Assembly: GCA_903929815.1 (NCBI GenBank) | Contig: CAIYWD010000260.1 | Location: 1-48,442, forward strand | Length of the DNA stretch: 48,442 bases | Source: an uncultured beta proteobacterium | GTDB lineage: Bacteria; Pseudomonadota; Gammaproteobacteria; Burkholderiales; Burkholderiaceae_C | Direction: 5' to 3' | In this document: piece by piece, positions 5,689 to 48,327 of the stretch | Position numbering within the stretch: the first letter of the stretch is position 1 | Layout: every line of letters begins with the position of its first letter | Translations under genes and position numbers: made by a program | The notes under the pieces: model-generated | What the model saw: only the letters and a program-made list of their open reading frames with translations | Database searches by the model: none | What the model was told of the DNA's origin: nothing

Positions 5689-7086
5689 GCCATAAGCCAA
5701 ATTTAACGACCCCGAAGCCCGACGGCAAACCCGCGCTGGTTCCCAAGCTGCGCTTTCCGGAGTTTCGGAATGCGGAGGGGTGGGACACCACGCCCGGCGA
5801 TGAGTTGTTCGAGCAGATTAACAACCGCCAAGCACCCGCTGGGCTTCCGATTCTCGCCATCACACAAGAGCACGGAGCCATTCCACGCGACCTAATCGAC
5901 TATCACGTCTCGGTCACTGATAAGAGCGTCGAAACCTATAAGGAGGTTCTACCCGGAGATTTAATTATCAGCCTTAGATCCTTCCAAGGGGGTATCGAAT
6001 ATTCAGATTACCACGGCATTTGCAGTCAAGCCTATGTCATTCTTCGCAAAAGACCCGAGCTGTCTGACTTGTTCTTCAAGCAACACTTCAAGTCGCACAG
6101 CTTTAGGTATGCACCACTTATTGTTGCTCCAAAAAATTATAGCTAATTGTCAAAAAATCAGTCAGTTACGATGTGTTATTGGAGTAATAATAAGTGGGAC
6201 ATCCCTTATTCAGCAGTTAACGAAAAATCTCGAAGGTCTTCGAGATGGAAAAATGGTCAGTTACAAACAGTTTTCCGAACTGCTGCTGCTGAATCCCTCT
6301 CCACTCGAACAACAAAAAATCGCCGAGTGCCTGGGCTCCGTCGATGAGCTGATTGCGGCCCAAGCCCGAAAACTGGACGCGCTCAAGACACATAAAAAGG
6401 GGCTAATGCAGCAGCTTTTTCCCCGCGAAGGCGAAACCCAACCCCGCCTCCGTTTCCCCGAATTCCAAAATGCAGGGAAGTGGGAGGCAAGTCCGCTAAT
6501 TGGATTGAGCAGCGTAGGGCTACGTAACGGAGTTTTCAATGATCCGAAGAAAGTCGGCACCGGTTTCAAGCTGATCAACGTCTCGGACATGTATATCGAC
6601 ACAACGATAGATGAAGGGCGCTTGTCACTACTCGAACTCGCACTTTCCGACTTCGAAGCGAACCAAGTAATACACGGAGACATCTTTTTCACTCGCTCGT
6701 CTTTGGTTAAGTCCGGCATCGCTGTATCGAACATTTATCTCGGAAGCTCGAGTGATGTGACTTTTGATGGCCATCTAATCAGGTTCAGGACCAACACCAG
6801 CAAGGTGATCCCGTTGTTTACTCACTATCTTTTCAAGACAGCACCAATACGTGCGCAGCTCATCGCCCGAGGAAAGACAGCAACGATGACCACAATCGGC
6901 CAAGCAGACGTTTCGAGCGTAATACTGTTCTATCCTGAGCGGAAAGAACAACAACGCATAGCCGACTGCCTCACCACCCTCGACGACCTCATCGCCGCGC
7001 AAACCCAAAAGCTCGAAGCCCTCAAAACCCACAAGAAAGGGCTGATGCAACAGCTTTTTCCATCTCCTCAGGAGGTTGAAACATGA
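5685..7086 (+). pseudogene. hsdS: Type I RM specificity subunit, interrupted by MITE-A
   Basis: Repeated conserved blocks PKLRFPEF/PRLRFPEF and EQQKIAECL..KTHKKGLMQQLFP/EQQRIADCL..KTHKKGLMQQLFP. Removing 6106-6208 (103 bp) restores a single 432-aa frame (...HFKSHSFIQQLTKNLEG...). Confidence 0.93.
6106..6205. mobile_element. MITE family A, 100 bp, TTA target duplication
   Basis: 27-bp imperfect TIRs (GGTATGCACCACTTATTGTTGCTCCAA / GGGATGTCCCACTTATTATTACTCCAA); TTA at 6103-6105 and 6206-6208; near-identical copy at 48072-48171. Confidence 0.95.
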
Positions 7087-8093
7087 GCAACCTTATCCTC
7101 TACACCACCGAAGACGGCAGGAGCCAAATCAAGCTCCGCACGGAGAATCAGACCGTCTGGCTGACTCAGTTGGAAATGGCTGAACTCTTCGATGCCACGA
7201 AGCAGAACATCTCGCTGCACCTGAAGAACCTTTTCGAGGACGGGGAGCTGGACCCGGCGGCAACTGTCAAGGAATCCTTGACAGTTCAAGCCGAGGGCGA
7301 CCGCGACGTGCAGCGCCAGGTCATGCTCTACAACCTGGAGGCCATTCTGGCCGTGGGCTACCGTGTGCGCTCGTCCCGTGGCGTACAGTTCCGCCGCTGG
7401 GCATCCTCTGTTTTGAAAGAATATCTGCTCAAGGGCTTCGCCATGGACGATGAGCGGCTGAAGAACCCCGATGGCCGCCCCGATCACTTCGACGAGATGC
7501 TGGAGCGCATCCGGGACATCCGAGCTTCCGAGAAGCGCTTCTACCAGAAGGTGCGCGACCTGTTTGCCTTGAGCAGCGACTATGACAAGACGGACCAAGC
7601 CACGCAGGTCTTCTTCGCCACAGTGCAGAACATCCTTCTCTACGCCGTCACCCAAAAAACTGCCGCTGAACTGATTAGCGCACGTGCCAACCACAACGAT
7701 CCGAATTTTGGTCTCTTGCACTGGAAGGGAGCGAAAGTGCGCAAAGAAGATATCCTGACCGCCAAGAACTACCTGACCGAGGACGAGATTGATACCCTCA
7801 ACCGCCTAGTGGTGATTTTCCTGGAAACGGCGGAACTACGGGCCAAGAGTAAGCAGGAAACCCGCATGAGTTTCTGGAAGGGCAACGTGGACCAGATCAT
7901 CACCTCTAACGGCTTCCCGCTGCTCGCCCATGCGGGCTCGATCAGTCATGGGCAAATGGAGAGCAAGACGAACGCCCTCTATCTCGACTACGACCAGCGC
8001 CGCAAACAACAAGAAGTGCTGCAAGCAGACCAGCAGGACGAGGCCGAGCTCAAAGCCATCGAAAACAAAATCAAACGACGCCCGAAGACATGA
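7083..8093 (+). CDS. rhuM: RhuM family (virulence RhuM / putative DNA-binding) protein
   Basis: TVWLTQLEMAELF, NISLHLKNLFEDGEL, YNLEAILAVGYRVRSSRGVQFRRWA, KGFAMDDERLK, ERIRDIRASEKRFYQKV; ATGA overlaps at both ends. Confidence 0.9.
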   Translation: MSNLILYTTEDGRSQIKLRTENQTVWLTQLEMAELFDATKQNISLHLKNLFEDGELDPAATVKESLTVQAEGDRDVQRQVMLYNLEAILAVGYRVRSSRGVQFRRWASSVLKEYLLKGFAMDDERLKNPDGRPDHFDEMLERIRDIRASEKRFYQKVRDLFALSSDYDKTDQATQVFFATVQNILLYAVTQKTAAELISARANHNDPNFGLLHWKGAKVRKEDILTAKNYLTEDEIDTLNRLVVIFLETAELRAKSKQETRMSFWKGNVDQIITSNGFPLLAHAGSISHGQMESKTNALYLDYDQRRKQQEVLQADQQDEAELKAIENKIKRRPKT

Positions 8094-9718
8094 CCGACCA
8101 AAACCAAACCCAACTGGGCAAAACCCTCTGGAACATCGCCGACCAATTGCGTGGCGCGATGGACGCAGACGATTTCCGCGACTACATGCTGTCGTTCCTG
8201 TTCCTGCGCTACCTCTCGGACAACTACGTGGCGGCGGTCCAGCGCGAATTGGGCACGGACTATCCAAAGCTAGAAGCTGATGGCCGCCGCGTGCCTCTCG
8301 CCCTTTGGTATGCGAACAACCCCGATGATGTCGCCGAGTTTGAAAAACAGATGCGGCGCAAGGTGCATTACGTCATCAAGCCGCAATACCTCTGGACAAG
8401 CATCGCCAACATGGCCCGGCGGCAAGACGGGGAACTGCTGGGCACCCTGCAAGCGGGCTTCAAATACATCGAGAACGACTCCTTTCAAAGCACCTTCCAA
8501 GGGCTGTTCTCAGAGATTGATCTGGCCTCCCATAAGCTGGGCAAGACCTATGCCGACCGTAACGCAAAGCTCTGCACCATCCTCCAAAAGCTCGCAGAGG
8601 GCTTGGCCGAATTCTCCACCGACATTGATGCGCTTGGCGATGCCTACGAATACCTGATCGGCCAGTTCGCCGCCGGTTCCGGCAAGAAGGCGGGCGAGTT
8701 CTACACCCCGCAGCAGATTTCCGACATTCTCTCGGCCATCGTCACGCTCGACAGCCAGGAACCCGCCACCGGCAAGAAGCAACGACTAGAGAAAGTCCTC
8801 GACTTTGCCTGCGGCTCTGGCTCCCTGCTCCTCAACGTGCGAAAGCGCATGGGAGCACAACGGGATGGGAGCATCGGCAAAATTTATGGGCAGGAAAAGA
8901 ACATCACCACCTACAACCTCGCCCGCATGAACATGCTGCTGCATGGGGTGAAGGATTCGGAGTTCGAGATTTACCACGGCGACACCCTGACCAACGATTG
9001 GGATCTGCTGCGCGAACTCAACCCCGCCAGGAAGCCCTACTTCGACGCCATCGTCGCCAATCCGCCCTTCAGCTACCGGTGGGACCCCACCGACGCGATG
9101 GGCGATGATGTGCGTTTCAAAAACCACGGCCTTGCCCCCAAATCCGCCGCCGATTTTGCCTTCCTCCTGCACGGCTTCCACTTCCTGAAAGACGAAGGCG
9201 TGATGGCCATCATCCTGCCCCACGGCGTGCTCTTTCGTGGCGGCGCGGAGGAGCGCATCCGCACCAAACTGCTCAAGGACGGTCATATCGACACCGTCAT
9301 CGGCCTGCCCGCCAATCTGTTTTACTCCACGGGCATTCCGGTCTGCATCCTCGTGCTCAAGAAGTGCAAGAAACCGGACAACGTGCTCTTCATTAACGCC
9401 AGCGGTCCGGAAAACTTCGAGAAAGGCAAACGCCAGAACCGCCTCAAAGATGAGCACATCACCAAGATCATCGACACCTACCAATTCAGGAAGGAAGAAG
9501 AGCGCTATTCCAGGCGAGTTTCAATGGAGCGAATTGCCGAGGAAGGATTCAACCTGAATATCTCTCGCTACATCAGCACGGCGGTCACTGAGGAGGAGAT
9601 TGTTCTGGAGGATACCCATGCCGAACTGGTCAGAATTGAGGCGGACATCCGAAAGGCCACGCTCAAACACAATGAATTCCTGAAAGAACTGGGCAAGCCG
9701 TTGTTGCCGGTTGAATGA
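8090..9718 (+). CDS. hsdM: Type I RM m6A methyltransferase subunit M
   Basis: LWNIADQLRG, GDAYEYLIGQFA, GEFYTP, motif I LDFACGSGSLL, motif IV ANPPF, ILPHGVLFRGG. Confidence 0.97.
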   Translation: MTDQNQTQLGKTLWNIADQLRGAMDADDFRDYMLSFLFLRYLSDNYVAAVQRELGTDYPKLEADGRRVPLALWYANNPDDVAEFEKQMRRKVHYVIKPQYLWTSIANMARRQDGELLGTLQAGFKYIENDSFQSTFQGLFSEIDLASHKLGKTYADRNAKLCTILQKLAEGLAEFSTDIDALGDAYEYLIGQFAAGSGKKAGEFYTPQQISDILSAIVTLDSQEPATGKKQRLEKVLDFACGSGSLLLNVRKRMGAQRDGSIGKIYGQEKNITTYNLARMNMLLHGVKDSEFEIYHGDTLTNDWDLLRELNPARKPYFDAIVANPPFSYRWDPTDAMGDDVRFKNHGLAPKSAADFAFLLHGFHFLKDEGVMAIILPHGVLFRGGAEERIRTKLLKDGHIDTVIGLPANLFYSTGIPVCILVLKKCKKPDNVLFINASGPENFEKGKRQNRLKDEHITKIIDTYQFRKEEERYSRRVSMERIAEEGFNLNISRYISTAVTEEEIVLEDTHAELVRIEADIRKATLKHNEFLKELGKPLLPVE

Positions 9719-9739
9719 CGCTGGCGGACTGACATCCAT

Positions 9740-47951: not shown

Positions 47952-47964
47952 TGGCCCAAATGTT

Positions 47965-47990
47965 GTCATTCCCGCGAAGGCGGGAATCCA
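47965..47990. repeat. REP/dRS3-like palindrome
   Basis: GTCATTCCCGCGAAGGCGGGAATCCA fits ATTCCC-N8-GGGAAT. Confidence 0.75.
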
Positions 47991-48020
47991 GTGTATTGTG
48001 GTCTTCATGGATACAAAAAG

Positions 48021-48327
48021 TCGGAATGGTCCAACGTGTTTGTCGATGCCAAGATGACCACGGCGTTGTTAGGTATGCACCACTTATTGTTGCTCCAAAA
48101 AATCATGGCTAATTGTCAAAAAATCAGTCAGTTACGATGTGTTATTGGAGTAATAATAAGTGGGACATCCCTTAGATCGGCTCACACATCATTGCCACAT
48201 CGTGGAGACAGGCAACGAGTCGTATCGGTTTGCACAAAGTTCAATGGCGGCCAAGTCACGCATCAAGGGGCGCGAACAATTGCGTAAGGATAGCGCCAAG
48301 GCAGCACCGATGCCCGAGCCGATCTGA
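48021..48327 (+). pseudogene. istB: IS21-family IstB ATPase C-terminal remnant, interrupted by MITE-A
   Basis: Removing 48072-48174 gives SEWSNVFVDAKMTTALLDRLTHHCHIVETGNESYRF..., the IstB C-terminal signature. Confidence 0.9.
48072..48171. mobile_element. MITE family A, second copy, TTA duplication
   Basis: Differs from 6106-6205 at two positions that I can see (AATTATAG vs AATCATGG); TTA at 48069-48071 and 48172-48174. Confidence 0.95.

Follow-up and report, generated by a model that had tools for sequence, protein, structure and literature searches.

MITEs and their mobilization in trans are, as such, already well known in bacteria. According to a census of 183,232 genomes, approximately 90% of MITEs are intergenic, and the top values given are 468 per genome, 123–146 per Mb and 1.23% of a genome (PMC11602168). 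REP dimers of the CGTC-1 class, which include dRS3, are described as head-to-head pairs of 8-bp stems with 4-bp loops and a CGTC tag, without a dedicated transposase, and their multiplication without a RAYT is treated as an open question (PMC3733652). GTAG-15 dimers of Anabaena and CGTC-1 dimers of Halothiobacillus are reported in the same source to lie within longer palindromes. The ISKra4 group (p-MULT 4) is characterized by inverted repeats of 18–39 bp, direct repeats of 8–9 bp and a Mutator-related transposase, and promoter-directed insertion has been reported for some of its elements (PMC3942029).

The window, that is, the whole 48,442-nt stretch of DNA that was analyzed, belongs to a 2.6-Mb MAG of the Rhodoferax lineage (genome G000; 283 contigs, N50 12 kb, 97.5% complete, contamination 0.14%). 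Its repeats are likely trans-mobilized non-autonomous MITEs of approximately 100–300 bp, many of which captured REP doublets and amplify them. The observed basis for this explanation comprises the ends, target duplications, copy numbers, an empty site, the identity of the ends with those of full-length IS, and the REP-like cores.

Between positions 6106 and 48171, 17 MITEs or their fragments were found; the window also contains the cut end of one multi-copy IS (Table 1). The window contained 10 short inverted-repeat pairs vs 0–1 in each of 10 dinucleotide shuffles, and an Rfam search returned tRNAs only. Other genomic copies at no less than 80% coverage numbered from 9 to 122 for the window types A1, A, B, C and D, while the E element at 16055–16138 had none at 80% coverage and three at 50%, and the nested composite at 34792–35072 was unique in the genome as a whole. 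It should be noted that families A1 and A probably correspond to A and B of an earlier note on this DNA, C and D agree, and E is one of its families E and F, the coordinates not having been given there by family. The multi-family MITE population claimed in that note is real and larger than stated, its expectation of further copies held for every type except the two just named, and the target signatures were read as described: TTA at the A element 19354–19457 as well as at the two A1 copies, 8 bp at the C element 34879–34992, 9 bp at the D element 39271–39465, and no duplication at two E copies. Its statement that an intact transposase was missing was correct for the window, where none of 45 scanned ORFs carried a transposase domain, but not for the rest of the assembly, which has intact IS66, IS1634 and ISL2-like frames. 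The absence of transposases is partly an assembly artefact, with multi-copy IS collapsed at contig ends. The IS end at 1–211 was also found at contig ends C170, C198 and C260, in run X1 the read depth over it was about 220 vs 13 alongside, and run X4 gave a 1886-nt contig that extended beyond it.

Table 1. MITEs, MITE fragments and the IS end of the window (strand as reported; a dot means that none is assigned; copies are other genomic copies).
Feature	Position	Strand	Remarks
Cut left end of multi-copy IS	1..211	-	First 29 codons of frame
A1 MITE	6106..6205	.	TTA duplication; splits hsdS (type I restriction cluster); 9 copies
Repeated-core fragment without ends	9900..9978	.	33 copies; elsewhere core sits within D-type ends
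A MITE, ~160-bp type	15766..15926	.	Left end decayed; at TTA within D remnant; 122 copies
Right half of D element	15927..15977	.	
E element	16055..16138	.	No target duplication
E element, other core	17216..17340	.	End bases 20/20 complementary; no target duplication
C end remnant	19343..19466	.	Split at its TTA by A element 19354–19457
A MITE, 104-bp type	19354..19457	.	TTA duplication
One-ended repeat, minor class N	19485..19570	.	4 copies
B core behind A-type end	22414..22541	.	Opposite end decayed; 32 copies
B element	24301..24423	.	Inverted copy of 22414–22541 core; one end intact
E end remnant	34779..34791	.	Target of A element 34792–35072
A MITE enclosing nested C element	34792..35072	.	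43-bp arms, 42 matched; outer pieces 87 + 72 bp
C MITE	34879..34992	.	IS66-type ends, 21/21 and 20/21 to G128 IS66; 8-bp duplication
D MITE	39271..39465	.	ISKra4-type ends, 20/23 to G090 ISKra4; 9-bp duplication
Left part of C element	47935..48030	.	One CGTC-1-type (dRS3-like) arm; 36 copies at 80%
A1 MITE	48072..48171	.	TTA duplication; 98% identity to 6106–6205

Excision of the A1 element at 6106–6205 together with one copy of its duplication gave a single open hsdS frame of 432 codons, and an empty site matching the A1 element at 48072 was present on contig C48. Among the sites in common with the sister genome G134, that of the A element 15766–15926 was also occupied by the same element, that of 22414–22541 carried the same element and an extra A insertion with a 3-bp duplication, and an A-type element stood in place of the B element 24301–24423. 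The empty site and these differences from G134 are indirect pointers to movement. The D element 39271–39465 enclosed an inverted pair of C-run/G-run palindromes and had a single-hairpin fold (z = −12.5).

Genome-wide, the terminal-repeat ends numbered 1,644 (vs 76 in reversed controls) and fell into 15 classes, and end-anchored repeat DNA made up 5.4% of the genome. Two-ended elements numbered 291 (112 per Mb), including 123 (47 per Mb) with an exact duplication. Target duplications were present in families A, A1, C, D, G, K and L, accounting, depending on the family, for about a third to all of the paired copies: TWA in 7/7 for A1, exact 3 bp in 54/92 for A, exact 8 bp or more in 22 of the 50 paired copies of C, and exact 9 bp in 17/57 for D (22 when one mismatch was allowed). 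More than half of the paired C and D elements were without a duplication, which might be due to recombination of one copy with another, to a deletion next to the element or to chimeras in the assembly; the duplication partner lay on a different contig, mostly at contig breaks, for a further 25 of the 220 C ends and 45 of the 419 D ends. Only 9 of the 103 testable elements were located inside open frames vs 1231 of the 2000 random sites, which agrees with the earlier view that core ORFs are spared. Family H was the only target-biased family (32/36). Targeted nesting of family A was rejected, 125 of 430 ends being nested and 4796 of 14,871 non-ORF TWA sites being already MITE DNA.

Judging by end match and the 8–9-bp duplication, family D appears to be an ISKra4-type MITE. 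An ISKra4 transposase of 450 aa (205.9 bits vs a cut-off of 205) is encoded by a 1464-bp element, and the D ends matched the ISKra4 of the relative G090 at 20/23 positions. The ends of the 1464-bp element were found at five contig ends of the studied genome, two pairs having common 9-bp flanks (9/9 and 8/9), and the multi-copy ends were identical from contig to contig; in this assembly, the resident ISKra4 lies divided between contig ends. Profile NF033572 missed it because the assembly holds only the tips of the element. The IS256-like affinity proposed earlier for D was retained insofar as ISKra4 is Mutator-related; IS256 proper was rejected as the partner, since the PF00872 (IS256) profile had no match in G000, while the D ends match ISKra4. 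No match to the ISKra4 protein was found in viral contigs. Family C is a putative IS66-type MITE, as had been proposed, in view of the 8-bp duplication and the end match to single-gene IS66 (ISBst12 group) of relatives. Its ends matched those of the G128 IS66 (NF033517, 223.5 bits, cut-off 180) at 21/21 and 20/21 positions and those of an IS66 from a Thiodictyon plasmid, also with an 8-bp duplication, at 18/21. The resident elements matched less well (13/17 and 15/23 only for D and ISKra4, 14/21 for C and IS66), and because of these low values cross-mobilization of D and C is uncertain.

The ends of family A fit ISAzo13 far better than IS5, and on this sequence comparison ISAzo13 is probably the partner of A. 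The layout of A with T-N-A-type 3-bp flanks was found in 27 of 32 ISAzo13 ends (best 16/21; 16 elements recovered from 34 loci), whereas it was found in 1 of 12 IS5 ends (best 9/21; 6 elements from 30 loci). Thus, IS5 of the IS1031/IS427 type was not supported as the partner of the main TWA family, for which the earlier note had pointed to IS1031/ISL2-type elements; PF13340 had no match in G000, and a tblastn match on contig C103 taken for IS5 proved to be surE. An ISAzo13 gene was not found in G000 or G134. The genome's own ISL2-like element, the sole ISL2 element compared, had ends unrelated to A and A1. An all-genome scan for the A partner gave 26 loci, of which 10 came from one relative and one was a real Methylovulum MITE, the remaining ones lying within unrelated genes; in viral contigs the A end was matched 13 times, always singly and never as a pair, and in a plasmid BLAST the 30-bp ends of families A, D, E and A1 had either no match or matches at chance level. 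As for family E, a duplication was found in none of 11 paired copies at the offsets tried, and an 8–9-bp partner in none of 53 ends; distant partners were rejected as the cause, none having been found. An IS1595-like stub at four contig ends had, by eye, an 8-base inner core in common with E.

One end type wraps at least six unrelated cores, which are often inverted REP-like pairs forming hairpins, a trait typical of REPINs. Within 170 bp inward of an end were located 180/193 arms of the CGTC type, 158/161 of the C-run type, and 85/98, 29/32 and 47/48 arms of three other types vs 314 of 5000 random sites (6%), whereas two REP-like types were less tied to ends (23/56 and 27/62). The label CGTC-1 follows the text description in PMC3733652 rather than its consensus figure. 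In a generic test, both ends were found around 46 of the 72 CGTC clusters away from contig edges (chance rate 22/150). The CGTC doublet was present in IS66-type ends in G000, G134 and G124, and also in a second type of end, with 10-bp duplications, in G000, in IS4-type ends (G078) and in A-type ends (G076); elsewhere, in further genomes, different doublets were enclosed by ISKra4-type and A-type ends. In family A (160 bp), the most abundant one, none of the seven motifs tested for was present as a REP-like core. REP-like interiors were absent from the earlier note.

According to the proposed explanation, DDE transposases of several IS families would cut and insert the MITEs in trans, as the earlier note had also inferred: ISKra4 for D, single-gene IS66 for C and probably ISAzo13 for A. 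The transposase presumably binds the outer 15–23 bp only, and therefore any short DNA between the ends would be movable. A shell would acquire a REP doublet when the doublet inserted close to an IS end or when the ends closed around it, and would then be amplified, with the REP-like pairs copied as passengers. With insertions into genes being purged, the surviving copies would accumulate in intergenic DNA. For C and A, the partners are absent from the assembly and are therefore unbinned or already lost. We give an even chance to the more specific proposition that REP doublets, including the CGTC class reported without a transposase, were captured repeatedly and amplified inside DDE-type MITE shells. 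The hairpin core may itself be favored, for instance by helping the ends of such a short element to meet or by damping read-through.

Several other explanations were weighed against this one. It is improbable that the doublets are genuine REPINs mobilized by a RAYT or another HUH enzyme preferring MITE interiors, with the shells collecting them one by one. In favor of this, a CGTC-type arm was found in 46 of 144 genus genomes, most of them without C ends, 23 of the 29 CGTC clusters read in relatives had no wrapper by the generic test, empty shells of 38–50 bp are present in the studied genome, and the Thiodictyon IS66 has, by eye, a palindromic pair within one end. However, dozens of copies are alike both in the spacer and in the junction between end and arm (65, 51 and 20 C ends and 102 and 102 D ends by cluster), the duplications flank the outer ends and not the doublets, and the Y1/RAYT transposase (PF01797) had no match in the 97.5% complete assembly; this alternative may still describe the one-off capture step. 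The same Thiodictyon element shows that a parent is able to carry a doublet, and internal deletion is the standard origin of bacterial MITEs (PMC3184786), so the MITEs might be plain deletion derivatives of the partner IS, with palindromic cores inherited from the parent and meaningless. This is unlikely: in the ISKra4 elements L135 and L136 and in the G128 IS66, coding sequence lies close behind the ends and none of the MITE cores is present, and one end type has at least six cores unrelated to one another, although the true parents may be unsampled.

An assembly or binning artefact is hardly credible. The MAG is fragmented, and one G134 contig was 99.8% identical to positions 19253–21209 of the window, which therefore indicates some cross-binning or recent transfer, but the site-specific duplications, the empty site, the exactly interrupted gene and the low contamination argue against an artefact, as does the presence of the same families in the independent assemblies G134 and G124. 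A question of timing, compatible with the preferred explanation of captured and trans-amplified doublets, is whether the population is largely fossil, with the bursts over and A1 alone still mobile; this is conceivable, if somewhat doubtful. The median nearest-copy identity was 95.6% (A), 97.8% (C) and 93.6% (D), copies with 99% identity or more numbered 2/55 (A), 2/18 (C) and 0/15 (D) vs 7/8 (A1), many elements are halves, and the A and C partners were not assembled. On the other hand, most of the spacers that the genome has in common with G134 (92–96% identity where the two correspond) contain different elements in G134, and the ISKra4 ends are multi-copy and identical across contigs. In addition, 415 of 566 contig ends lay within repeats, and young copies are under-counted because near-identical copies break contigs. 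The assertion that the elements are reshaping the genome now is supported for the young A1 only; the median nearest-copy identities of the other families were 93.6–98.4%.

The studied genome offers a concrete, testable route for the spread of CGTC-type REPs, with named enzymes and substrates. If true, REPs would in general have a second way of spreading, and the cases of REPs within palindromes described in 2013 would be recast as MITEs. Short non-autonomous elements are now linked to ISKra4 and probably to ISAzo13, and the MITE load of a small, probably free-living lake bacterium can rank close to the highest census values given above (112 or 47 per Mb, 5.4%); the methods differ, and no record is claimed. 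Short-read MAGs lose exactly those multi-copy IS that are needed for the interpretation of MITEs.

In the open-access texts searched, no abstract describing REP doublets carried by DDE MITEs was found, and searches on ISKra4 and ISAzo13 gave one paper each (PMC9208149). No MITE-bounded gene cassettes were found in the fragmented G000 assembly, where 18 long pairs of C and 34 of D were considered; in G134, a 159-aa ORF lies between two C elements with one outer 8-bp duplication, which resembles the MITE-bounded cassettes of the IMU type (PMC3184786). Family D differs from the ISKra4 group in having no transposase. The studied elements are similar to Correia/NEMIS, RUP and Nezha in that they are short, non-coding and intergenic, with terminal inverted repeats, target duplications and stable hairpins, and are moved in trans (PMC3184786), as inferred here; unlike known bacterial MITEs, they comprise at least 15 coexisting end classes, ISKra4 and probably ISAzo13 ends, and many REP-like doublets. 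With REPINs and RAYTs they have in common two inverted REP-like palindromes around a spacer, an extragenic position and a long hairpin (PMC3116915), whereas here the doublet lies within DDE-type ends with 5–10-bp duplications outside, and no RAYT was found in G000. Finally, the enclosing palindromes are termed targets in the excerpt of PMC3733652, which links them to neither an IS family nor duplications, whereas here the enclosing sequences are IS66-type ends with 8-bp duplications.

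The MAG that holds the window as contig C260 (2.6 Mb in 283 contigs, completeness 97.5%, contamination 0.14%) encodes a FliF protein with 77% identity to that of Rhodoferax lithotrophicus and 74% to that of Ca. Symbiobacter mobilis, and core DNA of this genome is contained in lake and freshwater metagenomes. Among the genes of the window are a type I restriction cluster, those of an AcrAB-type pump, and flagellar and housekeeping genes. The earlier note had counted about 15 short elements and no intact transposase; 17 elements or fragments were found, and none of the 45 ORFs scanned was a transposase. 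Ten inverted-repeat pairs passed the filter, against 0–1 in shuffled DNA. Several are nested. By end class (single letters), A lies at a TTA within the ends of C, D and E, and A in turn holds C. One A1 copy splits hsdS (type I restriction) exactly, and the gene is inactivated by this insertion; the second has an empty twin site on contig C48.

Coordinates of features in the window (unless another contig is named), with their readings
Position	Feature	Reading
1-211	~16x deeper than flank in likely source run	Cut end of an IS, not a MITE
554-9718, 17657-19225	Type I restriction genes, two YhcG nucleases, RhuM; low-GC methylase with a different downstream neighbour in sister genome G134	Defence region
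6106-48171	Short elements and fragments	
19253-21209	99.8% identity to G134:C17; adjoining stretches 92-96%	Probable cross-binning or recent transfer
22424-22546, 24294-24416	Inverted B cores, 93% complementary, either side of tetR-fliR-fliQ	Possible inversion substrate
46628-48442	BrnT/BrnA pair downstream of tRNA-Asp; stretch recurring on C48 (99%, 271 bp)	Resembles edge of integrated element
L242:102-1317 (G134:C151)	Two C elements bracketing a 159-aa zinc-knuckle/MUG113-like ORF; one outer 8-bp duplication	MITE-bounded gene cassette
C127:140, C189:2121	Halves of one PHY-domain gene	Cut by ISKra4 element

These halves account for two of the seven PHY-domain matches in the 2.6 Mb, which also hold about 59 ORFs resembling hybrid kinases and 29 resembling chemoreceptors. 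By analogy, this sensory gene set is reminiscent of the central bacterium in phototrophic consortia, for which the text available of PMC4053972 gives four bacteriophytochromes; the FliF distance to that bacterium is no smaller than to other Rhodoferax.

Genome-wide, 1,644 terminal ends in fifteen classes were detected (A 433, D 422, C 227, G 165, I 111, E 53, the rest fewer), against 76 for the reversed-motif control. The repeat DNA anchored on them amounts to 141,694 bp in 846 clusters (5.4% of the genome), and 415 of 566 contig ends lie within repeats. Both ends were on one contig for 291 elements, 123 with an exact duplication. Insertions avoid genes (9 of 103 elements within genes vs 1231 of 2000 random sites), and nesting of A is not above expectation from the supply of non-coding targets. 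Among 144 genus genomes, A ends are abundant only in this MAG and its sister (322 and 382, with one match in one other), C ends are abundant in three (205, 93 and 73) and D ends occur in 40, with the maximum here (320). Elements have turned over between the two sister genomes; present-day activity is clear only for A1.

The target signatures proposed earlier were borne out: duplications were TWA in 7/7 A1 elements, exact 3 bp in 54/92 A elements (another 15 being flanked by a TTA and a TAA), 8 bp in 22/50 C and 9 bp in 17/57 D elements, the share of C and D elements without duplication being high. The minor classes G, K and L had duplications of 5, 5 and 10 bp. A, A1, C, D, G, K and L display the testable characters of MITEs, while E had no duplication by any test run.

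The partner assignments fared unevenly. IS66 was supported for C, whose ends occur on single-gene IS66 elements, a group which we take to be ISBst12 (21/21 in G128, 18/21 on a Thiodictyon plasmid; the resident IS66 on C119 14/21). For D, held compatible with IS256-like elements in the earlier note, the 9-bp duplication stood and the partner did not: five contig ends carry a D-related end followed by coding sequence, and the whole element (1464 bp, on a metagenome contig) encodes a 450-aa ISKra4 protein, its flanks matching across contigs as 9-bp duplications. D ends match this element at 15/23 positions and the ISKra4 of G090 at 20/23; ISKra4 is a Mutator-related group with 8-9-bp repeats, according to the text available of PMC3942029. 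The IS5-family partner of A, the main TWA family, was not sustained: the A-end layout (two G, eleven variable bases, an A-rich box; 3-bp flanks) is present in 27/32 ISAzo13 ends (best 16/21) vs 1/12 IS5-type ends (best 9/21). No ISAzo13 gene was found in either sister genome. IS4-family elements share the H ends (16/18, 18/18); for G ends, the match is an IS1380-like element (14/18) scoring under the family cut-off.

Frames looking intact are two IS1634, one ISL2-like and one IS66 (C44, C145, C28, C119); the ends of the C44 element match minor class O. Counted by tips at contig ends, at least three multi-copy IS besides ISKra4 are missing from the assembly: presumably IS21-like (C10, C51, C139, C230, C255, C2, C37), IS1595-like by eye (C162, C163, C139, C168) and unclassified (C170, C198, C236, C260). 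A resemblance to ISAs1 is likewise presumed. One MITE provides the target for another, H nearly always inserting in the C-run arm of D (32/36 ends nested; C60, C95, C106, C271); a full IS4 element in G124 (L181) is placed likewise.

One end type wraps many unrelated cores, many of them inverted pairs of short REP-type palindromes (doublets). For five of seven motifs, arms lie almost exclusively just inside an end (180/193, 158/161, 85/98, 29/32, 47/48); two looser motifs gave 23/56 and 27/62, and random sites 314/5000. The CGTC-type pair is enclosed here by C and L ends, and another pair by both C and D. Elsewhere, D ends in G046, G060 and G078 enclose a different doublet, A-type ends in a Methylovulum MAG other doublets, and the CGTC pair lies inside IS4-type ends with a 10-bp duplication (G078) or, by eye, A-type ends (G076). 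CGTC palindromes occur in 46/144 genus genomes, and 23 of 29 clusters read in relatives look free of wrapper. This variety of wrappers, the free clusters and the wide occurrence suggest that the palindromes pre-exist in the genus, the wrapped state being probably derived and amplified. Whole elements fold into long hairpins (z -12.5 and -15.6), which is no evidence of function, since any such sequence must fold so.

The anatomy of the elements, their duplications, an empty site, the identity of ends to autonomous IS and turnover against the sister genome were observed. Very probably, the outer 15-23 bp are the recognition sequence of each transposase, which mobilises any short DNA in between, and shells that captured a doublet were amplified as units, because dozens of copies have their junctions in common and the duplications are located outside the ends. 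Capture would be the putative step by which a shell gains its doublet; a hairpin benefit is hypothetical.

The MITE density is close to the top of the published census in PMC11602168, as far as its available text goes and with a different counting method. The cores look like REPINs as presented in the text available of PMC3116915; they differ in that no RAYT, the enzyme moving REPs, was found in this 97.5% complete assembly. The closest precedent, in the portion available of PMC3733652, is REP dimers within longer palindromes, interpreted there as targets.
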